Below, piece after piece: positions 3,808 through 22,523 of a DNA stretch of 64,000 nt. The number at the start of each line of letters is the position of its first letter. The stretch's first letter is position 1. The stretch lies in the sequence record OL960580; one strand, written 5' to 3'. The stretch is from Escherichia phage vB_EcoM_SA21RB. The notes under the pieces are model-generated. The model was not told the DNA's origin. It saw only the letters and a list, made by a program, of their open reading frames with translations, and did not search any database. A program made the position numbers and the translations under genes.

Positions 3808-4086
3808 TCAAAATGTAATTTCTAACCAATCACCATCACGCTGATCACTATTGACTTTAAAGCTAAATCCTTCTTTTCTCAGCCAATCACCAATTTCTTC
3901 AGTAATCAATTTATCGCGAGCAGCACAATAATAACTAAAATATGTTTTACCTTGTTCAGCTGCTTTATTAGCAAGTTCCGAAAAATCTTTAATAAAACAC
4001 TCTAGTTTAAACTGTTTACTTTTAAGTGCTTTTTCGCGTAATTGATTAGCAAAAGATTCATTTTCATAAAGATCATACTGTTCCAT
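3808..4086 (-). CDS. hypothetical protein (position of T4 24.2)
   Basis: 92 aa ORF, AT-rich phage codon usage, tight spacing to neighbours. Confidence 0.6.
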   Translation of the reverse strand: MEQYDLYENESFANQLREKALKSKQFKLECFIKDFSELANKAAEQGKTYFSYYCAARDKLITEEIGDWLRKEGFSFKVNSDQRDGDWLEITF

Positions 4087-4288
4087 TTTTCACCTTTTTA
4101 TTAATATGTCTTTTTCTATAGACAACTTTTTCTCGAGTCTCAAATTTATTCTTAGCAGTCATAGCTCGAGCCCACAATACAGCCACTTCTTTCGCCTGCA
4201 AGTTCAATTCACGAGCAATTTCAATGAATGACTTTCCAGACTCATGAAGAGTAAACACCACAACCTCAGTTCTCATAATCAATCTCAT
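4073..4288 (-). CDS. hypothetical small protein with possible helix-turn-helix (position of T4 24.3)
   Basis: 71 aa ORF; segment SGKSFIEIARELNLQAKEVAVLWARA resembles a DNA-binding HTH. Confidence 0.5.
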   Translation of the reverse strand: MRLIMRTEVVVFTLHESGKSFIEIARELNLQAKEVAVLWARAMTAKNKFETREKVVYRKRHINKKVKNGTV

Positions 4289-4356
4289 GTTATCGAGTTG
4301 ATGCCATTATATACAACGTTTTCTGATTGTGTCTTGCGTGCTTTCAAAATGAAGAA

Positions 4357-4372
4357 AGGGGCCGAAGCCCCT
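4357..4372 (-). terminator. hairpin downstream of hoc
   Basis: ggggcc-gaag-cccc stem-loop immediately 3' of the hoc stop. Confidence 0.5.
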
Positions 4373-4376
4373 GAGA

Positions 4377-5507
4377 TTATGGATAGGTATAGATGATACC
4401 AGTTTCTAAAGCAGTTTTATGAATGATGTATCCATTGCGCGATTCTTGAACATCAACTTCTGGATAGTCTTTCATCATCTTCTGAAGAGTGTAACGATGC
4501 AAGTAGTACTTACTATCTGGGTCGTCAGTTTTCCAATCTTTACCTTCTTCAGTCATTTTTTGGATTTCATCCATAACCCACCAACCGCACCAGATGTAAG
4601 CTGAAGTACGATGTGGAAGAGGATGAACATAAGGCAATTCACCTTCTGGTTCCGGAGCAACTTTATCAGTTACCTGAACTTGACCTTCTGCTGTGATAGT
4701 TTTGCTATCATAATCAGTAGCGGTAACAGTTGCAGTAACTTCAATAGTTTGACTTCCAATAGATGATGTATCAACGGTGTATACATTAGTTGACCCTTCT
4801 ACTGGAGAAGAATCTTTCTTCCATGAATATTCAATTTGCGCTTCTTCTGGAGCATCAGTGACATTAGCAGTAAATGTAGCCGAAGCATCCTGCTGAACGT
4901 TAATAGAAGGAGGAGTCAATATAACCTGTGGATTCATTGTCTTCTTATTAACTGTCAATGATACTTCATTAGAAGTAACTTCCTTTGCATCATAATCTGC
5001 CGCTGTTACTTGAGCTACGCATTTAATTCTTTTTACTCCACTTGTAGTTGGAGTATAGCTAAATGTAGCGGAAGTTGCTTCACTAACAGGAGAATCATCT
5101 ACATGCCACTGATACGTAGCAGATGCGCCTGATGGTTGAGAAGCTAAAGCAGCAGTAAATTCAACAGGAGTTCCAATCACTCCAGCAGCAGGACTATCAG
5201 GAGTTACAGCTAAGGTAGTTGTCTGTGTCTTATTTTGAACTGTGATAGTTGTAGTAGCTTCTGCTGTTTCAGCATCAGTATCTGGAACTGTGTTTGTTGC
5301 AACTACTTTAATAGTCTTTTGACCAGCAGGTCCTTTTAATACATAATCAAAAGTTGCTGCTGATCCTTCTTGAGGAGCATTATCTACGCTCCAAGCATAG
5401 GTAATAGTTCCACCTCCAGTTTCACCACTGGGTGTAGCAGTAAACTGCTGAGTCTGATCTATAACTCCAGTAGGTGTTTTAGGAGTTATATCAACTGTAA
5501 AAGCCAT
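4377..5507 (-). CDS. hoc: Hoc, highly immunogenic outer capsid protein (Ig-like repeats)
   Basis: 376 aa; MAFTVDITPKTPTGVID... and C-terminal ...YIWCGWWVMDEIQK...TYP match T4 Hoc. Confidence 0.93.
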   Translation of the reverse strand: MAFTVDITPKTPTGVIDQTQQFTATPSGETGGGTITYAWSVDNAPQEGSAATFDYVLKGPAGQKTIKVVATNTVPDTDAETAEATTTITVQNKTQTTTLAVTPDSPAAGVIGTPVEFTAALASQPSGASATYQWHVDDSPVSEATSATFSYTPTTSGVKRIKCVAQVTAADYDAKEVTSNEVSLTVNKKTMNPQVILTPPSINVQQDASATFTANVTDAPEEAQIEYSWKKDSSPVEGSTNVYTVDTSSIGSQTIEVTATVTATDYDSKTITAEGQVQVTDKVAPEPEGELPYVHPLPHRTSAYIWCGWWVMDEIQKMTEEGKDWKTDDPDSKYYLHRYTLQKMMKDYPEVDVQESRNGYIIHKTALETGIIYTYP

Positions 5508-6247: not shown

Positions 6248-7759
6248 ATGACTGACATTAAAGTACATTTTTATGATTTTAGTCACGTGAGAATTGATTG
6301 TGAAGAAAGTACATTTCATGAACTCCGTGATTTCTTTAGCTTTGAAGCTGATGGGTATCGTTTTAATCCGAAGTACAAATATGGCCACTGGGATGGACGA
6401 ATCCGTCTTTTAGATTATAATCGCCTTCTTCCATTTGGTTTAGTCGGGCAAATTAAAAAGTTCTGTGATAACTTTGGCTATAAAGCCTGGATTGACCCGC
6501 AGATTAACGAAAAAGAAGAATTATCAAGAAAAGATTTTGATGAATGGCTTTCTAAATTAGAAATCTATTCAGGAAATAAAAGAATTGAACCGCACTGGTA
6601 TCAAAAAGATGCAGTGTTCGAAGGATTAGTTAATCGTCGTAGAATTCTTAATCTTCCAACATCCGCAGGTAAATCCTTAATTCAAGCTTTGCTTGCACGT
6701 TATTATTTGGAAAATTATGAAGGTAAAATTCTTATCATTGTTCCAACAACTGCTCTGACAACTCAGATGGCTGATGACTTTGTTGACTATCGTTTATTCA
6801 GTCATGCAATGATAAAGAAAATCGGTGGTGGAGCATCAAAAGATGATAAATATAAAAATGATGCACCGGTCGTTGTTGGTACATGGCAAACTGTAGTAAA
6901 ACAACCGAAAGAATGGTTCTCACAGTTTGGAATGATGATGAATGATGAATGCCATCTTGCTACAGGAAAAAGTATTTCATCTATCATATCAGGTTTAAAT
7001 AACTGTATGTTTAAATTTGGTTTGTCCGGTTCATTGCGCGATGGCAAAGCTAATATCATGCAGTATGTTGGAATGTTTGGTGAAATATTTAAGCCAGTAA
7101 CGACTTCTAAATTAATGGAAGATGGACAAGTAACTGAGCTAAAAATTAATAGTATTTTTCTTCGCTATCCTGATGAGTTCACTACTAAATTAAAGGGAAA
7201 AACTTACCAAGAAGAAATAAAAATTATTACTGGGCTCAGTAAAAGAAATAAATGGATCGCTAAATTAGCTATTAAACTTGCACAAAAAGATGAAAACGCT
7301 TTTGTCATGTTTAAACACGTATCGCACGGTAAAGCTATTTTCGATTTAATTAAAAATGAATACGATAAAGTTTATTACGTATCAGGGGAAGTTGATACCG
7401 AAACCCGCAATATAATGAAAACCTTAGCTGAAAATGGTAAAGGAATAATTATAGTAGCTAGTTATGGTGTATTTTCTACTGGTATTTCAGTTAAAAATCT
7501 GCATCACGTTGTTTTAGCGCACGGTGTTAAATCTAAAATTATTGTATTGCAAACAATCGGTCGTGTATTACGTAAGCATGGTTCTAAGACAATAGCAACC
7601 GTCTGGGACCTCATAGATGATTGTGGCGTTAAGCCAAAATCTGCTAATACGAAAAAGAAATATGTTCATTTGAACTATCTTTTAAAACACGGCATTGATC
7701 GTATTCAGCGCTACGCAGATGAAAAATTTAATTACGTAATGAAAACAGTTAATTTATAA
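6248..7759 (+). CDS. uvsW: UvsW DNA/RNA helicase
   Basis: 503 aa; Walker A LPTSAGKS; sequence matches T4 UvsW. Confidence 0.95.
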   Translation: MTDIKVHFYDFSHVRIDCEESTFHELRDFFSFEADGYRFNPKYKYGHWDGRIRLLDYNRLLPFGLVGQIKKFCDNFGYKAWIDPQINEKEELSRKDFDEWLSKLEIYSGNKRIEPHWYQKDAVFEGLVNRRRILNLPTSAGKSLIQALLARYYLENYEGKILIIVPTTALTTQMADDFVDYRLFSHAMIKKIGGGASKDDKYKNDAPVVVGTWQTVVKQPKEWFSQFGMMMNDECHLATGKSISSIISGLNNCMFKFGLSGSLRDGKANIMQYVGMFGEIFKPVTTSKLMEDGQVTELKINSIFLRYPDEFTTKLKGKTYQEEIKIITGLSKRNKWIAKLAIKLAQKDENAFVMFKHVSHGKAIFDLIKNEYDKVYYVSGEVDTETRNIMKTLAENGKGIIIVASYGVFSTGISVKNLHHVVLAHGVKSKIIVLQTIGRVLRKHGSKTIATVWDLIDDCGVKPKSANTKKKYVHLNYLLKHGIDRIQRYADEKFNYVMKTVNL

Positions 7760-15323: not shown

Positions 15324-16288
15324 TGTATTCTTTAGAGGAATTTAATAATCAAGCAATAAACGCAGATTTCCAGCGTAATAATATGTTTAGCTGCGTTTTT
15401 GCGACAACTCCATCAACTAAAAGCTCTTCGTTGATAAGTTCAATTAGCAACTTTTCTTATAATAACTTGGGCCTAAATTCAGATTGGTTAGGATTGACTC
15501 AAGGCGATATTAATCAGGGAATTACCACGCTAATTACTGCTGGCACACAAAAACTGATAAGAAAATCAGGGGTTAGTAAATATCTTATTGGTGCCATGAG
15601 TCAACGTACAGTTCAAAGTTTATTGGGCTCATTTACAGTTGGTACATATTTAATTGACTTCTTTAATATGGCATATAACTCATCTGGGTTGATGATATAC
15701 TCTGTAAAAATGCCAGAGAATAGATTATCCTATGAAACTGACTGGAACTATAACTCTCCTAATATTCGTATAACTGGGAGAGAATTAGACCCTTTGGTTA
15801 TTTCATTTAGAATGGATTCAGAAGCTTGTAACTATCGTGCAATGCAAGACTGGGTTAACGCTGTTCAAGACCCAGTAACTGGACTGCGTGCTTTGCCACA
15901 AGATGTCGAGGCAGATATTCAGGTTAATCTTCATTCTCGTAATGGATTGCCTCATACTGCGGTGATGTTCACCGGATGCATTCCAATATCAGTGAGCGCT
16001 CCTGAGTTATCATATGATGGAGATAACCAAATAACTACATTTGATGTTACTTTTGCGTACAGAGTGATGCAGGCTGGAGCGGTTGATAGGCAAGCTGCGC
16101 TTGAATGGCTTGAATCTGCTGCTATAAATGGTATTCAAAGCGTTCTCGGAAATAGTGGAGGTGTTACTGGACTATCTAATTCGCTTTCACGACTTAGTAG
16201 ATTAGGAGGGACTGCTGGAAGCATTTCAAACATTAATACTATGACAGGAATTGTTAATTCGCAGAGTAAAATATTAGGAGCAATATAA
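15323..16288 (+). CDS. 54: baseplate tail-tube initiator gp54
   Basis: 321 aa; ATGA overlap with gene 48; matches T4 gp54. Confidence 0.92.
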   Translation: MYSLEEFNNQAINADFQRNNMFSCVFATTPSTKSSSLISSISNFSYNNLGLNSDWLGLTQGDINQGITTLITAGTQKLIRKSGVSKYLIGAMSQRTVQSLLGSFTVGTYLIDFFNMAYNSSGLMIYSVKMPENRLSYETDWNYNSPNIRITGRELDPLVISFRMDSEACNYRAMQDWVNAVQDPVTGLRALPQDVEADIQVNLHSRNGLPHTAVMFTGCIPISVSAPELSYDGDNQITTFDVTFAYRVMQAGAVDRQAALEWLESAAINGIQSVLGNSGGVTGLSNSLSRLSRLGGTAGSISNINTMTGIVNSQSKILGAI

Positions 16289-16292
16289 CAAT

Positions 16293-16310
16293 GGGGACCT
16301 TTCGGTCCCC
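16293..16310. terminator. bidirectional hairpin terminator between gene 54 and the converging minus-strand unit
   Basis: ggggacc-tttc-ggtcccc followed by TTTTTATTT. Confidence 0.65.
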
Positions 16311-16316
16311 ATATTT

Positions 16317-16607
16317 TTATTTACGGAATGAAATGAAAGCAGAAACTGAAGCAACTAAACTGTCTTCAATATAAACTTCAATTTTTACCGGAGCTTCTGA
16401 CTCGAATTTACCTGTTACTACACCTTGGAAAATACTTTCAGTTTGTTCTGGCTTTGAAAAATTTTCAGAAGGAAAAATTCCGAACTTTTTATCTGTTCCA
16501 AAAATTTTGATAAATTCATCATAAACTGCTTCATTAAAAGCATTATCAGCAGGAATAACGCCTTCAACTACAAGTTCTTGACCTAAAAAGCGCAAAGAAG
16601 ATTTCAT
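16317..16607 (-). CDS. hypothetical protein (position of T4 alt.-3)
   Basis: 96 aa ORF with SD AAGGA; early promoter immediately upstream. Confidence 0.6.
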   Translation of the reverse strand: MKSSLRFLGQELVVEGVIPADNAFNEAVYDEFIKIFGTDKKFGIFPSENFSKPEQTESIFQGVVTGKFESEAPVKIEVYIEDSLVASVSAFISFRK

Positions 16608-16627
16608 TTTGTGTTCCTTATGTTATA

Positions 16628-16668
16628 TCAGTAAGATTACTATAACACAACACGAGGGACTTGTAAAC
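16628..16668 (-). promoter_or_regulatory. T4-type early promoter (copy A of a 41-bp perfect repeat)
   Basis: minus strand GTTTAC -35, about 17 bp spacer, TATAGT -10; identical to 31902-31942. Confidence 0.6.
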
Positions 16669-18725
16669 TACATTTTGAACTTTTTAGACATTCCGTTAAT
16701 GTTAACCAAAGAAGCTAAGATTTGAGAAACTTCGTTTTCCTCTTCTTTTGATTCTTCTACAAGGAATTGATTAAATCCAGCCATTGGACGAACTTCACCA
16801 GTTTCCATTAAATGGTCGCCATCATATACTGATTCTTCTAATTGTTCAGAAGGAGGAACGATTGTACCTTCGATTAGATACTTATTATAAGCAGTTTCTT
16901 TCATAAAGTACGTACTTACTTTATTAATCTTCAGTAAAATTCCACGCGGTAGAATAACTTCAGCTTCTGATGGAAATCCTGATAAATGACCTGGAACGAT
17001 AACTTTGATTCGCTCAGCTCCTTTAATTACCATACCCACGCTAGTTTCAGCATCTTCATTAGCATATGTAGAATGACTACCCATATGCATCAAATCTTCT
17101 GCATCAACGGAACCTTCTCCTTCACCAGAAAATACTGCGCCGGAATCATCTAGAGCCATATAGTTTTTACCATGCTCACCGAAGATATTTGGTTTAAGCG
17201 ATGTGGATACGAAGTTCTTGAAATAGAACATTTTATTTTCAATGTTATGACGCAAAGTTTTAAAGGTAACTTCTTGCCCACGATAAAGAGTAGTTCCTGG
17301 AGGAAGAACTGAACCTTTAGCAAATGCAGAATCCAACGTCTCGATGTGTTTAATAGCTCGTTCCATATATTCTTCACGAGTAGAATCTGGTTTACCCAAG
17401 AGGAACGAGTTCATTTCAACATATGAATCTGCACAATAATCTTCAATTACATCAGACTCAGCCTGAGTCAGTCCTTTTGGAGTTACTTCGGTGCTTGCGT
17501 ATTCATATGCCTGAGCAGCAGATTCATTAATCAATTTATAAATGCCATTCATGACAAATTGAATAATAGCTGTCTTTTCATCTGACGTAGCTTTAGAACC
17601 TTTAACTAAATCATTGATAATTTTCTTAATAACATCAAAGCTATTAGAAATATTAATATCAGCAAGATCGCTTAAAATTTTATCAGTTTTATAATCAAAG
17701 AATTCTTTATTCTTTAAATATTCTTGAGAACCTTGATATGTTATATCGCTCTGCAACTTGATGGATGGATCACGTAAACGTGCATGGGCTAATGCAATAT
17801 GATTTCGGAAGTTTTCTAGTTCATAATCGCTAGATTTAAAACGAGAAGCACTTCTCATACCACCGATAGCTCCTTTGCTGAAGTTTGAACCAATCTGAAT
17901 AACGCCAGAGTTCATTGGTCCTTCTGCTTTATATACCGGAACTTTAGATTCAAACTCTTGATATTTCTTGGCAGCGAAGCTATCACCCTGAAGCGAAGCA
18001 TCTACAGTAGAATATTGAGCTTGCGCTGCTAATCGACGACTAATTTTAGTTTTCTGAATAACAGCTTGATCCGTGCGCTTATCATTTTCTAAAGCAATAG
18101 AAGCAGCAACAGCAACAGCTTTAGGAACAGCATTACCTGTTTTAACATCTACATAAACATCACCAACCTTTGATTCAACTTTTGTGAATAACTCAGTTGA
18201 AATAGGAGGTACACCTGGAATGTCTTCTAAATTGGCATTTTTACGGTAAACCATAATATATGCATACTTTTTATCATAATCCCAGATTTCCTTTAAAAGA
18301 ACATATCGACCTGCTCCTTTAGTACGTACTAAACGGTCAGCAATAACTTGCATTTGACGAGCTGCGCCATTTGTTTTACTTTTTAGTACGCGGAATAGGC
18401 ATGCGTCAATTTTATACTGTTTCATTGTTTGAAGAGCAGTATCAAAAACCGCATTAATAACACCAATTGGATTTCCACCCAAGTTTTTAAGTTTAACTAA
18501 TGATAGTTTCTCATTAACACCTATCATTACGATATGCATCATTTTATCGCCTGGCTTAACGTTTTTATTTGTATCACCGCCAGAGGTGTATGTACAAAAT
18601 CTAAATCCAGGAAGCACGCTTTCTTCGCCGGCTTGAATAGCAAAAATTTGAGGTATTTTATGCTTAGGATTTAAGTTAACAACCGGCGCCGAAGCGCCGT
18701 CAAATAATTCTGTAATAAGTTCCAT
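16668..18725 (-). CDS. Alt-like ADP-ribosyltransferase paralog (intact, 685 aa)
   Basis: N-terminal ~230 aa near-colinear with Alt (MELITELFD...); C-terminal ART signature YRGQ / FVSTSL / EAEVILPRG. Confidence 0.85.
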   Translation of the reverse strand: MELITELFDGASAPVVNLNPKHKIPQIFAIQAGEESVLPGFRFCTYTSGGDTNKNVKPGDKMMHIVMIGVNEKLSLVKLKNLGGNPIGVINAVFDTALQTMKQYKIDACLFRVLKSKTNGAARQMQVIADRLVRTKGAGRYVLLKEIWDYDKKYAYIMVYRKNANLEDIPGVPPISTELFTKVESKVGDVYVDVKTGNAVPKAVAVAASIALENDKRTDQAVIQKTKISRRLAAQAQYSTVDASLQGDSFAAKKYQEFESKVPVYKAEGPMNSGVIQIGSNFSKGAIGGMRSASRFKSSDYELENFRNHIALAHARLRDPSIKLQSDITYQGSQEYLKNKEFFDYKTDKILSDLADINISNSFDVIKKIINDLVKGSKATSDEKTAIIQFVMNGIYKLINESAAQAYEYASTEVTPKGLTQAESDVIEDYCADSYVEMNSFLLGKPDSTREEYMERAIKHIETLDSAFAKGSVLPPGTTLYRGQEVTFKTLRHNIENKMFYFKNFVSTSLKPNIFGEHGKNYMALDDSGAVFSGEGEGSVDAEDLMHMGSHSTYANEDAETSVGMVIKGAERIKVIVPGHLSGFPSEAEVILPRGILLKINKVSTYFMKETAYNKYLIEGTIVPPSEQLEESVYDGDHLMETGEVRPMAGFNQFLVEESKEEENEVSQILASLVNINGMSKKFKM

Positions 18726-18728
18726 GAT

Positions 18729-20822
18729 TTATCCTTGAACGAACTTGTAAGGCATGTTTGTAATATCTATGCAAGACGCAATAATTCCAAGAGATGATTC
18801 TACTTTTTGTTTAACATTTGATGAAACAAATGATGCAAAGTCAACTCTGTCTTCTATTTCAATATCACCTGTCATTGCAACTACTTCACCAGTTTCCATT
18901 AGACGGTCACCGTCATAAATTACTGATTCGGTGAGTTCTTCCGTAGTCATAACTTCAGCTTGAATGAGTTTTGTATTATTAGATGTTGTTCCGTCATTAT
19001 TAGAAGCATCAGTTATTTTATTAACTTTGACCATCAATCCGCGTGGTAGAATAACTTCAGCTTCTGTTGCTATTCCGAGACTTCCTGGATATACAACATT
19101 AACTTTATGTGCGCCGTCAATTGCCCATCCTATTTGAACTTTAACGTATTCAGGATTTTCTTTATACGCTCTTATTTCGTTTGGATTAATAGTTATTCCT
19201 TCTTCATTTTTATCAACTGTCAATTCATTACGAGCTTCTGGTTCTAAAAGACCAATACCAGCATGTGTAATTCCAAAACGTCCAAAAATGATAGGAGTTA
19301 AAGAAGTAGATACAAAATTTCTGAAATAGAACACTTTATTTTTAACTAGTGCTTCGTATATAGGAGCAGTCATACTTTGTGCACGATAAACTGTAATGCC
19401 TTCCGGTATACGGTCACCATTTTCAAAAGCTGAATCTAAGTTATTTATAGCAGATTCAATTTCTTTTTCACTCATTACATCATATCGTTCTGGATTGTAG
19501 CGTCCTAAAAGAAGATTATTGATGTCAGTATATCCTGAACCACAATACTCTCTAATGCCGCGCTTTTGTGATGGAGTATATTTAGAACCATCACGGGCAA
19601 TAGTAATATCAATCATTGGACCTGCACCAATTCCAGAAAAGCTATAAATCATTCGTTTGAGGAATTTAGTTTTTGCTGCGTTCCAGGAATTTTTAGTTAT
19701 TTCTTCCCAGACTTCATCTGGCTGTCCTTTACGGGTTTTATTATGTTTATCAAGCCAAGTATCTTTATATTCTTCAAAGAATTTATTAATAGCTGCTGCA
19801 TACTTCTCTAAACATTTTATTGAAGTAGTTGGTTCATTTTTGATCGCGTTAAAAATTACATCTTTAATTTTTTCAGAAACTTCATTAACCTCACTTTTTG
19901 AAAAGAATTTATAATCATAGTGAAGTTCATCTGCAGTTCCTTCAGCAATAATTTTTGCTGCCTTAGTTTTAGAAGCCAATGAATTAATTCCAAGTTTCAT
20001 TTCTTCTGCTTCAGGAATTAAAGGAGCGGTAGCAGGTTTATTGAAATTAGCTGCGGTAGATTCATACTTCTGGAATAATTCACTTTCAAATCTAGAAGAT
20101 TCCAATGACTGACTTTGTGCAATTGCTCTACGGGAAATTTTAACTTTAACGATTACAGCTTGGTCAGAACGTTTATCATTTTCTTGCGCAATAGATGCAG
20201 CAATTGCCTCATTTTTAGTTACTTGAGCTCCAGTATCTTTATTGATATAAACATCACCGACCTTCGATTCAACTTTAGTAAAGAGCTCGGTGCTAATTTC
20301 CGGAATTCCTGGAATGTCTTCTAGTGATACATTTTTGCGATGTATAAGAATATATGCATACTTTTTATCGTAATCCCAGAGTTCCTTAAGAAGGACGTAT
20401 CTGCCACCCGAACGACTACGGATAAGTCTATCAGCAATAACTTGAATTTGTCGAGCTTGACCAGCAGTTTTAGACTTAAGAATACGGAGCATACAGGCAT
20501 CAATTTTATACTGACGCATCGTCTGCATTGCAACAGTAAAAACTGAATTGATGTAATTAATTGGGCTTGGACCGAGACCTTTCAATTTAGCAATTGAACC
20601 TTTAGCAGTTAATGTAAAAGGAACAATATGCATCATTTTATCGCCCATTTTTAAATCGCGATTAGTATCACCTCCAGATGTATAGGTACATAAACGAAAG
20701 CCTGGTTGTTCAATTGCGTCATCAACATGAACTGAAAAAATTTGCGGTATTTTCTTCTTTGGATTTAAGTTTGTAATCGGAAGAGTAGTATCTTCGTCAA
20801 ATAATTCTGTAATAAGTTCCAT
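18729..20822 (-). CDS. alt: Alt ADP-ribosyltransferase (virion-packaged, injected)
   Basis: 697 aa from the second Met (MELITELFDEDTTLPITN...); ART motifs VYRAQ / FVSTSL / EAEVILPRG; near-identical to T4 Alt. Confidence 0.93.
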   Translation of the reverse strand: MELITELFDEDTTLPITNLNPKKKIPQIFSVHVDDAIEQPGFRLCTYTSGGDTNRDLKMGDKMMHIVPFTLTAKGSIAKLKGLGPSPINYINSVFTVAMQTMRQYKIDACMLRILKSKTAGQARQIQVIADRLIRSRSGGRYVLLKELWDYDKKYAYILIHRKNVSLEDIPGIPEISTELFTKVESKVGDVYINKDTGAQVTKNEAIAASIAQENDKRSDQAVIVKVKISRRAIAQSQSLESSRFESELFQKYESTAANFNKPATAPLIPEAEEMKLGINSLASKTKAAKIIAEGTADELHYDYKFFSKSEVNEVSEKIKDVIFNAIKNEPTTSIKCLEKYAAAINKFFEEYKDTWLDKHNKTRKGQPDEVWEEITKNSWNAAKTKFLKRMIYSFSGIGAGPMIDITIARDGSKYTPSQKRGIREYCGSGYTDINNLLLGRYNPERYDVMSEKEIESAINNLDSAFENGDRIPEGITVYRAQSMTAPIYEALVKNKVFYFRNFVSTSLTPIIFGRFGITHAGIGLLEPEARNELTVDKNEEGITINPNEIRAYKENPEYVKVQIGWAIDGAHKVNVVYPGSLGIATEAEVILPRGLMVKVNKITDASNNDGTTSNNTKLIQAEVMTTEELTESVIYDGDRLMETGEVVAMTGDIEIEDRVDFASFVSSNVKQKVESSLGIIASCIDITNMPYKFVQG

Positions 20823-20845
20823 CATAGCCTCTCTAGTGTTTATTC

Positions 20846-20853
20846 TATTTATA
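20846..20853 (-). promoter_or_regulatory. late promoter for alt
   Basis: TATAAATA on the minus strand about 25 bp upstream of the alt ATG; consistent with Alt being a late virion protein. Confidence 0.55.
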
Positions 20854-20858
20854 AAATT

Positions 20859-20876
20859 AAAGGCCCGAAGGCCTTT
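20859..20876 (-). terminator. hairpin terminator downstream of the ligase operon
   Basis: aaaggcc-cgaa-ggccttt stem-loop. Confidence 0.5.
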
Positions 20877-21063
20877 AGTAATCTAGTGGTAAGAGAGTAC
20901 GATATATTTCAAACTTTGGTCCTTTTTCATAGGCATCAAATGTTTCTGTAAATTTATTATAAGCATATGCATCTACAAATTCGAGAATGACTTGTGATAC
21001 AGAAGTAGAAACATCTCCACCTTCTTTTTGAGCAATGACAATTGTTTCTAAGTAAGCTTTCAT
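20875..21063 (-). CDS. hypothetical small protein
   Basis: 62 aa ORF, ATGA-coupled to the DNA ligase stop. Confidence 0.55.
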   Translation of the reverse strand: MKAYLETIVIAQKEGGDVSTSVSQVILEFVDAYAYNKFTETFDAYEKGPKFEIYRTLLPLDY

Positions 21064-22523
21064 AGACCAGTTACCTCATGAAAATCACCAAATACATCCT
21101 CGAATGTATTAGCTTTAGTTTTATCTTCGCGTAAACGAATCGCAATCGGAAGAAATAATTTAACGTAATCAGTGCGGCCATCAGATTTTAACCAACCATT
21201 GCATTCGCACTCTAGAATTTTTCCAATATAATAATTTTGGTTTTCCATAATGCGAGTACGGTCAAGTTCATGTGATTTTACACCGGCTTTATCTTTTAAG
21301 CCTGAACCAGCATTTACTTTAATTTTTCCACATTCTGATTCAAGAATAAATCCACCGGCTTTAGTAGGGTCTTTACGGTGAGGATAAATTCCTACAATTT
21401 TTAAATCAACATCAATTACTTCTTTAAATTTATAGAGATTTTTTGAACGAGCATTTTCCCACAATCCATCGGTATTTTTGAGAATAATACCTTCAAGACC
21501 TTGGTCAATATATTTTTTATAAATTACCTTAGCTTCATCTAGGTTATTTACTACCTGGTTTTCAATTAAAATTACTTTATCATATCCTGATGTCATTTGT
21601 TCTAGTTTAGAAAAACGTACATCATATTTTAAACGAAACGCCGGAAGACCGTATATTTCTACCAACGGGACATAATCCCAGACCTGAAACTTCATACATT
21701 GAGCTTCTTTTTCAGAAATGGTTCCTTTTAAGGATTTATTGGCGATTCCATTAGAAGTAGTACGAGATTCCGCTACTTCGGCGAATTCTTTAGCTTTACT
21801 AATTTCAGGATAAGCATCAAAAAGAAAATCTAGGCCTTCTGGTTCCTTTTTAACTTGCTCATGGTATACCAATTCGCCATCAATTAACACACCTTCTGGA
21901 TGAATCTGGCGGGCTTCAGCAGTCATTTTGATTAACTCTTCCTTAAGAAGATCTAATCCTAGATATTCATTACCAGCTCGTGATAAAAGACGAACATCAT
22001 CTAATTCATCGCCTCGGACTTCAGCAAAACACCGAGCTCCATCTGCTTTTAACTGCGCAAAGGCTGGAAACTTGATATTCTTACTAATGCCTTTTTCATC
22101 ATAAGAACTTGCCAGCATTTGAGGTTGTTCAGGAATTAAACCTGGCCAAACTTTATTTGCAATAGATACTGAAGCACCGCATTCAAGGTCTCGCATCATA
22201 ACTCGACGCAAAACTTCAACATCATCCTTTTTACCATCGGTGATATATCCAATTAATTCCTCAATTGCCGCATTTCCAGTCAATTTCCGAGTAGCTAACG
22301 TGAATTCAATGAAGTCAAGCATATCGGTAATAGTCAGCATTCCAAAACTCTGGGTAGCAATACCAGGTTTAGGCCATTTCTTGATATAATACTGTAACCC
22401 ACGAGAATAAGTTAGACGATATACTCGTTTAAGCAATTCATTATCTTTATTCTTTTCAAGAATTGCTTGCTTCTGCTTAGTTGATCCAATAGATGCTATT
22501 TCATTCAGAATTTTAAGAATCAT
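21060..22523 (-). CDS. 30: ATP-dependent DNA ligase gp30
   Basis: 487 aa; MILKILNEIASIGSTKQKQAILEKN...; KADG adenylation motif; near-identical to T4 DNA ligase. Confidence 0.96.
   Translation of the reverse strand: MILKILNEIASIGSTKQKQAILEKNKDNELLKRVYRLTYSRGLQYYIKKWPKPGIATQSFGMLTITDMLDFIEFTLATRKLTGNAAIEELIGYITDGKKDDVEVLRRVMMRDLECGASVSIANKVWPGLIPEQPQMLASSYDEKGISKNIKFPAFAQLKADGARCFAEVRGDELDDVRLLSRAGNEYLGLDLLKEELIKMTAEARQIHPEGVLIDGELVYHEQVKKEPEGLDFLFDAYPEISKAKEFAEVAESRTTSNGIANKSLKGTISEKEAQCMKFQVWDYVPLVEIYGLPAFRLKYDVRFSKLEQMTSGYDKVILIENQVVNNLDEAKVIYKKYIDQGLEGIILKNTDGLWENARSKNLYKFKEVIDVDLKIVGIYPHRKDPTKAGGFILESECGKIKVNAGSGLKDKAGVKSHELDRTRIMENQNYYIGKILECECNGWLKSDGRTDYVKLFLPIAIRLREDKTKANTFEDVFGDFHEVTGL

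Follow-up and report, generated by a model that had tools for sequence, protein, structure and literature searches.

Two large genes of the Alt family lie in tandem in the genome of Escherichia phage vB_EcoM_SA21RB, and they raise the question of whether both encode working ADP-ribosyltransferases (ARTs) and, if so, what a second one would be for. Their better-known relative, T4 Alt (gpAlt, NP_049811), is a packaged and injected NAD:arginine ADP-ribosyltransferase. Our overall reading of the locus, within a window of 64,000 nucleotides, is that both genes are intact Alt-family ART genes, transcribed late, and that both products are packaged, injected and directed at different host targets; we give this reading a probability of roughly 70%.

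The two open reading frames, 16668..18725 and 18729..20825, are present as an earlier sequence-only reading had described them, and both run on the minus strand, which it had left unstated; the gene order is alt.1, alt, alt.-2, alt.-3. Along the direction of transcription, the copy resembling T4 alt, which had been called downstream, is the upstream, promoter-proximal gene. Its longer frame opens with ATGATG, and the second ATG (20822) has a GAGG ribosome-binding site 5 nt ahead of it. Starting from this codon, as annotated in RB32, T6 and T4, alt spans 18729..20822 and encodes 697 aa from MELITELFD. The same nine residues open the 685-aa product of alt.-2 (16668..18725), as had been claimed.

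By its flanking genes, regulatory elements and colinear sequence, the position-1 gene is the ortholog of T4 alt, sharing with it the alt.1 and alt.-2 flanks, the terminator, the late promoter, the start region and the ITE-6 and LTE motifs. The description "essentially T4 Alt" fits the two ends of the protein, where identity reaches 99% (N-terminal domain) and 90-94% (C-terminal part). It does not fit the central part (31-33%) or the ART domain (63-67%), and overall identity is 72%. At the nucleotide level, the initial ~700 nt and the final ~150 nt are 97-100% identical to T4 alt, and the breakpoints, located near nt 700 and nt 1900, are sharp. The gene is a different allele from that of T4, namely the one found in T2, T6 and RB32 (about 97-99% amino acid identity to T2, T6, RB32 and PP01). 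On the minus strand, its N-terminal domain is encoded at 20109-20822, the central helical region at 19572-20108, the ART domain at 18927-19571 and the C-terminal propeptide at 18732-18926.

The layout of transcription signals offers a first indication that the two genes are expressed together. A hairpin terminator after alt.1 (20858..20877, minus strand; AAAGGCC-TTCG-GGCCTTT, then a T-rich tail), kept in T4 and T6, is the end of the transcription unit upstream of alt. A T4-type late promoter, TATAAATA (20846..20853, minus strand), lies 23 nt upstream of the alt start, in agreement with the late promoter previously assigned to this copy, and T4 and T6 have the same element. It is predicted from its match to the consensus; because the motif shows no enrichment across the window (11 occurrences, 8.5 expected), the case for it rests on position and conservation. 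Only 3 nt (ATC; 18726..18728, minus strand) separate the TAA stop of alt from the ATG of alt.-2, whose AGGA ribosome-binding site is located within the 3' end of alt. No promoter match was found inside this gap, and the end of alt contains only weak sigma-70-like matches (9/12), no more than chance would give. Given the 3-nt spacing, and as no intervening terminator was detected, the two genes would be transcribed late as a single unit from the TATAAATA promoter, which probably drives alt and alt.-2 and possibly alt.-3. The latter (16317..16607, minus strand; 96 aa, DUF5498), whose function is discussed in PMC11618068, is the final gene of the cluster. Upstream of it, directly 3' of the alt.-2 stop, is a sigma-70-like promoter, TTTACA-17 nt-TATAGT (16639..16667, minus strand; 10/12, with TG ahead of the second hexamer), the top-scoring such site in 16200-21200, where these sites are not enriched. 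Downstream of the late promoter, the search for terminators gave its first hit at a bidirectional hairpin (16291..16312) between alt.-3 and the plus-strand gene 54.

Whether T4 itself carries the second gene intact, or only as its alt.-1 and alt.-2 ORFs, was left as a question by the sequence-only reading, and alignment to these ORFs answers it: T4 has only a stump. Codons 1-57 and 62-117 of the 685-aa gene correspond to the two T4 ORFs, which are 61 and 67 aa long. Over 423 nt, the stump is about 96-97% identical to this gene as compared with about 70% to alt, and alt.-2 receives about twice the score of alt from the PHROG families of the two ORFs. Judged from these matches, the T4 ORFs are the remnant of exactly this 685-aa gene, and reference T4 is without an intact second gene. 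Two lesions account for the stump: a 1-nt deletion in an A-run, causing a frameshift, and a 1,699-nt deletion between 9-nt CTAAAAAGT repeats. Both copies of the repeat are found here on the minus strand, the 5' copy at 18378..18386 (alt.-2 codons ~114-116; left end of the T4 deletion) and the 3' copy at 16679..16687 (9 nt ahead of the alt.-2 stop; right end of the deletion). In the RB32 and T6 records the gene is called an "apparent insertion in alt.-2". The T4 record takes the stump for a duplication limited to the initial portion of alt. We rejected the insertion in RB32 and T6, as the repeat-flanked junction shows a deletion in T4.

The disrupted version in T4, and the lack of an intact alt.-2 in about 90 other records, could be taken to mean that the second gene is a functionless duplicate decaying toward a pseudogene. 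Several observations make this highly improbable. T2, T6 and about 380-400 further phage records have an intact tandem pair in their annotation, and the T4 stump and two IMG/VR contigs, the disrupted copies compared, share the same two lesions in three of three cases, a pattern that points to a single loss, not to decay on several occasions. Selection analysis already contradicts decay: pN/pS is 0.052 for alt.-2 (45 pairs, 10 phages) and 0.053 for alt, indicating that purifying selection on the two genes is equally strong, and the value for alt.-2 drops to 0.02 in the N-terminal domain and the C-terminal propeptide. The RB32, T6 and T2 orthologs (YP_803136, AXN58232, BBF63359) show no substantial difference from alt.-2; they occupy the same position, encode 685 aa and carry the product name "Alt-like RNA polymerase ADP-ribosyltransferase", with 97.2-99.9% amino acid identity among the orthologs listed. 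Any role of alt.-2 is nevertheless conditional, because T4 and about 90 other records lack it, and its absence from T4 suggests that the gene would be dispensable in laboratory hosts.

Both proteins can be placed in the Alt family of phage ADP-ribosyltransferases, defined by PHROG 802 and by Pfam PF03496 plus PF26846. PF03496 scores 72 bits on alt.-2 (E = 5e-20) and 129 bits on alt (E = 1.7e-37) against a cut-off of 23.4; the PHROG 802 matches reach E = 9e-257 and 3e-272, respectively, and PF26846 is present as a precomputed annotation on alt.-2 orthologs such as P0001. The R-S-E signature that had been recognized in both proteins is borne out by the motifs LYRGQ / VYRAQ, NFVSTSL and EAEVILPRG. 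In alt.-2, the minus strand encodes the N-terminal domain at 18012-18725, the central helical region at 17478-18011, the ART domain at 16833-17477 and the C-terminal propeptide at 16671-16832; the catalytic residues are R482 (17280-17282), STS 507-509 (17199-17207) and E587-A-E589 (16959-16967). Their counterparts in alt are R480 (19383-19385), STS 505-507 (19302-19310) and E587-A-E589 (19056-19064). Across a 39-sequence family alignment, R482, S507, E587 and E589 (alt.-2 numbering) are invariant, and the rest of the STS motif, T508 and S509, reaches at least 90% conservation. None of the invariant residues is lost in alt.-2, and the R, S-T-S and E-x-E residues are kept in 11 of its orthologs, T2 and T6 included. 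These residues, together with the low pN/pS, support the earlier proposal that the other copy is an intact gene for a second Alt-family enzyme.

The family profile places the YRG and E-x-E motifs onto those of solved ARTs, and the structure predicted for alt.-2 adopts a C3/Vis-like ART fold of the R-S-E clade. In T4 Alt, the mutation "E577A" abolishes activity (PMC11404850); once the numbering is reconciled, the mutated residue is most likely the second Glu of E-x-E. The E-x-E motif suggests that both enzymes are arginine-specific. Relative to the C3-like, Vis and binary-toxin R-S-E ADP-ribosyltransferases (PF03496), to which sequence identity is 14-26%, the Alt family has in addition a 238-aa N-terminal domain, the helical central region, a cleavable C-terminal propeptide and, separating the STS motif from the ARTT loop, an insert of ~50 aa. 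The N-terminal Alt domain occurs in only 69 clusters among 1.84 billion representatives, nearly all of 600-712 aa; seven of the ten outliers scanned have an ART domain. The topology of this domain is predicted to be GNAT-like.

How far the two enzymes have diverged bears directly on whether the second merely adds to the first. The proteins are 41% identical (BLASTP, E = 1e-162), and the divergence is strongly uneven: in a three-sequence alignment, identity is 68% in the N-terminal residues 1-238, 17% in the central part, 36% in the ART domain and 36% at the C-terminus, and the same regions give 68/12/36/43% in a five-sequence alignment. The N-terminal ~230 aa are thus near-colinear, as had been noted, with a single 1-aa indel over residues 1-238. 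The strong central divergence also holds, although the most diverged stretch covers ~180 aa (residues 239-416), not about 250 aa. Compared with T4 Alt, alt.-2 has the same architecture, first nine residues, catalytic residues and both cleavage motifs. Identity to T4 Alt is 42% overall, falling to 12-17% centrally and 36% across the ART domain; the ARTT loop reads SGFPSEAE in alt.-2 and LAPSNEME in T4 Alt.

A tandem pair, altA and altB, is also found in JS98 (Dhakavirus), where the order alt.1, altA, altB, alt.-3, 54 is that observed here. The alt.-2 protein is 51% identical overall to JS98 AltB, with 44/59/60% in the central, ART and C-terminal parts, as opposed to 17/35/42% with AltA; alt is nearest to AltA (48%) in the same pattern. 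In this comparison of two genera, the match of alt.-2 to AltB implies that the duplication is older than the genus split. N-terminal domains behave differently, with 65-68% identity within a genome versus 42-47% between genera (orthologs 46-47%). The alt.-2 lineage carries YRGQ and, three positions ahead of E-x-E, an aromatic residue (F/Y); in the alt lineage the corresponding residues are [YW]R[AS]Q and I/P/H/Q. By these sequence criteria, alt is AltA-like and alt.-2 AltB-like, two old lineages differing in the substrate-recognition (ARTT) loop, and the different loops suggest different substrates.

An alternative is that alt.-2 has no specificity of its own and simply increases the dosage of Alt activity on RNA polymerase alpha and other Alt targets. 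The shared domain architecture, catalytic residues and arginine-type E-x-E motif would fit this explanation, as would the fact that T4 manages without alt.-2; the target specificity of T4 Alt is, moreover, already broad according to PMC5512222, which cites Depping 2005. We consider it unlikely, given the low identity of the central regions and ART domains, the lineage-specific differences in the ARTT loop and in the residues after the catalytic Arg, and the persistence of distinct lineages across two genera, with only the N-terminal domains staying alike within a genome. For a pure dosage duplicate, homogenisation or loss would be the expected outcome, and not a diverged sequence held at a pN/pS of 0.05. 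Distinct host targets for the two enzymes remain our preferred reading.

In the same reading, both proteins would travel in the virion. In T4 Alt, the gp21 cleavage sites have been mapped by mass spectrometry to ITE-6 and LTE-619 (PMC5694885). Removal of six residues at ITE-6 is in line with the processing role that the sequence-only reading gave to the N-terminal ~230 aa, but capsid targeting by the whole domain is undocumented. At aligned positions, alt.-2 has ITE 4-6 (18708-18716) and LEE 629-631 (16833-16841), and alt has ITE-6 and LTE 630-632 (18927-18935); E6 and E631 are invariant across the 39-sequence alignment. L/I-x-E tripeptides occur often in both proteins, with 7 in alt.-2 and 11 in alt, and the proposed sites stand out from the others only by their position and invariance. 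Retention of both motifs is expected of a packaged protein, but conserved motifs alone do not prove packaging, and our literature search found no virion proteomics, activity assay or target list for the Alt.-2 protein.

The Alt.-2 protein could instead be made late and not injected, acting in the producing cell or serving as a structural or scaffolding core component with secondary ART activity. Beyond its catalytic role, Alt has been described as important for being a protein of the core (PMC11404850), and the large conserved N-terminal domain with its predicted GNAT-like topology might be seen in the same light. We judge this quite improbable: the N-terminal propeptide is identical to that of Alt, both gp21 motifs stand at the positions used in T4 Alt, the gene appears to share its late transcription unit with a known packaged protein, and the catalytic residues are invariant. 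According to the reading we favor, Alt and Alt.-2 would both enter the prohead core, where the gp21 protease would trim them after ITE-6 and after the L-x-E at about 630, leaving mature proteins of roughly 70 and 69 kDa. Both would then be injected along with the DNA and, though both arginine-specific, would modify different sets of host proteins.

As a genome-scan finding the pair is ordinary, since the genes are correctly annotated in public records, the second as the RB32/T6 "alt.-2", and the pair is already in print, having been stated for phages 6phi13 and SHFML-11 as two virion-delivered ARTs with distinct targets (PMC13600099, 2026). The details added here are the T4 lesions, the strength of selection, the kept gp21 motifs, the operon layout, the JS98 AltB match and the T2/T6 alt allele.

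Taken together, these details allow a broader and more tentative proposal, which we hold at slightly less than even odds. T-even phages may normally inject two Alts, AltA and AltB being ancient paralogs kept apart across genera by different host targets, and one of the two enzymes may counter a host defence. The N-terminal domains would stay alike within a phage to fit the same prohead core, and this shared domain, instead of being a passive tag for packaging, may act as a GNAT-like module that binds a ligand or has enzymatic activity. T4 would be a natural AltB null, from which it follows that the textbook count of three T4 ADP-ribosyltransferases would understate the usual T-even set. T4 is the source of nearly all knowledge on injected phage ADP-ribosyltransferases, yet it is atypical here in having lost the second enzyme, which T2, T6 and about four fifths of the sequenced relatives retain under strong selection. 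Should Alt.-2 be injected and act on targets of its own, the typical T-even takeover would include a modification step invisible to experiments with T4, and the enzyme would be a candidate source of differences in host range or anti-defence that separate T4 from T2/T6.

The window is a segment of a Tequatrovirus (T4-like) genome, in which genes 29, 48 and 54 on the plus strand are followed by the alt cluster. This cluster is encoded on the minus strand and comprises alt.-3 (16317..16607, DUF5498), a 685-aa ORF (16668..18725) corresponding to alt.-2 of the RB32 and T6 annotations, a 697/698-aa ORF (18729..20825, or up to 20822 if started from the second ATG) and alt.1 (20875..21063), with DNA ligase next in order. 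Judged by its position and by the sequence of its ends, the 697-aa ORF (18729..20822) is alt. The same gene order is found in RB32, T6 and T2, and the region 16250-21100 shares 97-98% nucleotide identity with many Escherichia, Shigella and Yersinia phages, with at least 80% of it covered in 343 records. The two tandem Alt-type ORFs that the sequence-only reading had placed at 16668-18725 and 18729-20825 are present and correctly located. The alt gene starts with ATGATG (20820-20825) in the window as well as in T6 and in T4 (around 6503-6506 of the T4 locus). A GAGG ribosome-binding site favors the second ATG (20822), giving a 697-aa product that begins MELITELFD, and this start is also the one annotated in T4, T6 and RB32. 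The 62-aa product of alt.1 has a Pfam match to the family PF24647 (E = 2e-29), whose name, "Phage blade protein", is absent from most phage annotations.

As both genes lie on the minus strand, the ortholog of T4 alt, previously described as the downstream copy, is actually the promoter-proximal gene, while the late promoter element reported before it is indeed there. This TATAAATA motif (20853..20846, minus strand) and the hairpin terminator after alt.1 (20877..20858, minus strand) are both kept in T4 and T6. The alt.-2 ATG lies 3 nt from the alt stop codon, with an AGGA ribosome-binding site within the end of alt, and the next terminator found (16312..16291) follows alt.-3. In the simplest reading, one late transcript would run over both alt and alt.-2. 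Within the window, TATAAATA is not significantly enriched (11 found versus 8.5 expected), nor are sigma-70-like sites enriched in the region. A second exact TATAAATA at 19442-19449 (minus strand) falls inside the ART (ADP-ribosyltransferase) domain of alt, 717 nt ahead of where alt.-2 starts; it may serve as an internal late promoter or have arisen by chance. Directly upstream of alt.-3 there is a good sigma-70-like promoter, TTTACA-17-TATAGT (16639-16667), which may allow early expression of this gene as well, apart from the late alt transcript. Mutants of alt.-3 (DUF5498) with C-terminal extensions allow T4 to escape the CmdTAC defence system (PMC11618068).

Alt and Alt.-2 share 41% identity (E = 1e-162), and this identity is unevenly distributed. 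A three-sequence alignment gives 68% for residues 1-238, in agreement with the shared N-terminal part of ~230 aa proposed earlier, 17% for residues 239-416, 36% for the ART domain and 36% for the C-terminal part; the corresponding values in a five-sequence alignment are 68, 12, 36 and 43%. The center is thus as strongly diverged as had been claimed (12-17% identity), but extends over ~180 aa rather than ~250 aa. The ART motifs noted from the sequence are present in both proteins, which match both PF03496, the Pfam ART domain, far above threshold and PHROG 802, "Alt-like RNA polymerase ADP-ribosyltransferase". Loss of catalytic residues in Alt.-2 was looked for by alignment, and R482, S507, E587 and E589 (alt.-2 numbering) are all kept; they are among the invariant residues of a 39-sequence family alignment, in which T508 and S509 are kept in at least 90% of the sequences. 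At the other end of the genes, the paralogs do not differ at all in their first 27 nt, which encode MELITELFD (18699-18725 and 20796-20822), whereas synonymous sites elsewhere are saturated. Such identity suggests a nucleotide-level constraint on the start region or the propeptide, or local conversion.

The alt.-2 gene occurs with at least 95% amino acid identity in 396 records and is intact in T2 and T6. In the window it is full-length, with its 685 codons and catalytic residues kept, which bears out at the sequence level the view of an intact second copy. In T4, which the sequence-only reading had left open, two short ORFs are all that is found, alt.-1 (61 aa) and alt.-2 (67 aa). Their counterparts in the 685-aa gene are codons 1-57 and 62-117, and the DNA of this stump is ~96-97% identical to the 685-aa gene versus ~70% to alt. 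Two lesions account for its structure: the loss of 1 nt from an A-run, separating alt.-1 from alt.-2, and a 1,699-nt deletion whose ends fall within two copies of CTAAAAAGT (18386..18378 and 16687..16679 in the window). Since the lesion ends in these repeats, the full-length gene is ancestral and the T4 state a microhomology-flanked deletion, opposite in direction to the "apparent insertion" stated in the RB32 and T6 records.

The stump allele was located at 4060-4458 in the T4 locus (L002), 5523-6372 in L006 and 5478-6328 in L007. Exactly both T4 lesions also occur in two IMG/VR contigs, one of which carries a T2/T6-type alt, pointing at a single null allele moved between backgrounds by recombination. 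Recurrent independent deletion of alt.-2 is ruled out for the three loci examined, which have both lesions in common. The identity of the allele in three loci, paired with both alt alleles, indicates instead one origin followed by spread through recombination. With an 81-nt junction probe, the deletion was detected in 90 of 472 records, while the other ~380 match like the intact gene; each of the four possible pairings of an alt allele with an alt.-2 state is seen.

The gene at the first position is less close to T4 than assumed. Described earlier as essentially T4 Alt, the window protein shows only 72% identity to it overall; the value is 99% for the N-terminal part, 31-33% for the center, 63-67% for the ART domain and 90-94% for the C-terminus. 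In the DNA comparison, ~700 nt at the start of the gene and ~150 nt at its end are 97-100% identical, and the stretch between them 40-75%. Among 14 phages compared, alt falls into two sharply separate alleles: a T4 type, found in T4, OE5505, pSs-1 and two IMG/VR contigs, and a T2/T6/RB32 type, found in the window, T2, T6, RB32, PP01, WL-3, BMB16 and two IMG/VR contigs. Across the phage collection, identity to the window allele reaches at least 95% in 292 records and lies between 60 and 80% in 212, the range that includes T4 and the other alleles of its type. Thus alt is dimorphic in Tequatrovirus, its central and ART module (18927-20108, residues 239-632) apparently being swapped as a cassette.

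The Dhakavirus JS98 carries altA and altB in the same tandem arrangement. Outside the N-terminal domain, alt.-2 is nearest to AltB (44, 59 and 60% in the central, ART and C-terminal parts) and alt is nearest to AltA (33, 60 and 52%), while the crossed comparisons give 10-17%, 35-36% and 42-43%, respectively. This pairing implies a duplication older than the divergence of the two genera. For the N-terminal domains the pattern is reversed, with 68% and 65% identity within a genome versus 42-47% between genera. Recent gene conversion in the window phage is ruled out as the source of this likeness, as synonymous sites are saturated (pS 0.64, dS about 1.4). Older homogenisation, or co-evolution with a shared prohead partner, would explain the pattern.

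The idea of a polymorphic toxin, with one delivery domain serving many warheads, is unsupported: no more than 69 clusters out of 1.84 billion representatives contain the N-terminal domain, and of ten atypical members scanned, seven carry PF03496 and three have no Pfam match. Three metagenome proteins, each a single-member cluster from Logan assemblies, are 99% alt.-2 beyond their first 238 aa; this N-terminal part is 93% and 97.5% like Alt in P0005 and P0006, and intermediate in P0004 (85% to Alt, 83% to alt.-2). These chimeras may be natural paralog recombinants or assembly artefacts.

The two lineages also differ in the ART domain. The alt.-2/AltB lineage is marked by YRGQ, and the third residue ahead of its E-x-E is aromatic, as in C3 and iota toxins; the alt/AltA lineage shows [YW]R[AS]Q, and its third residue ahead of E-x-E is I, P, H or Q. 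The ARTT loop helps set substrate choice in C3-like toxins, and the lineage difference in this loop is consistent with distinct targets of Alt and Alt.-2.

Selection was analyzed on GenBank phage records; a scan of IMG/VR for relatives gave only 5 loci. The pN/pS of alt.-2 is 0.052 (10 phages, 45 pairs), with 0.020 in the N-terminal, 0.098 in the central, 0.049 in the ART and 0.020 in the C-terminal propeptide region, next to 0.053 for alt (36 pairs). None of the 11 alt.-2 orthologs checked has lost a catalytic or cleavage motif. A direct PDB sequence search with alt.-2 gave no match, so there is no solved structure for the Alt family; solved ARTs were reached only through a family profile, which aligns YRG and E-x-E to them. 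The AlphaFold2 model of alt.-2 has a pLDDT of 80 and a pTM of 0.69. Activity of T4 Alt is abolished by "E577A" (PMC11404850). In 682-aa numbering, its E-x-E is E574/E576, and the published E577 fits the second Glu only when counted from the upstream ATG of ATGATG; this residue is E589 in both window proteins.

The prohead protease gp21 cuts T4 Alt at ITE-6 and LTE-619, with loss of 6 and 63 residues (PMC5694885). Alt.-2 has a MELITE start identical to that of Alt and, at the aligned second position, L629-E-E631 followed by SVYDGD; E6 and E631 are invariant in the Alt family. Trimming of both proteins by gp21 at both motifs would yield mature Alt of 626 aa (70.2 kDa) and Alt.-2 of 625 aa (69.1 kDa), predicted to nearly co-migrate on a gel. 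The literature searched yielded neither virion proteomics nor biochemical work on the second Alt, and its packaging and injection are proposed only by analogy with T4 Alt.

The alt/alt.-2 pair is a real feature, and its genes are ordinary members of a known, annotated family. [quoted passage not shown] The SHFML-11 copy is 99.6% identical to the window alt.-2. Our contribution lies in the precise origin of the T4 stump, selection figures for alt.-2 and alt, the conserved second cleavage motif in alt.-2, the AltA/AltB orthology together with the maintained likeness of the N-terminal domains inside each genome, and the alt dimorphism. T4 is an atypical null for a conserved and, by analogy, probably injected enzyme.
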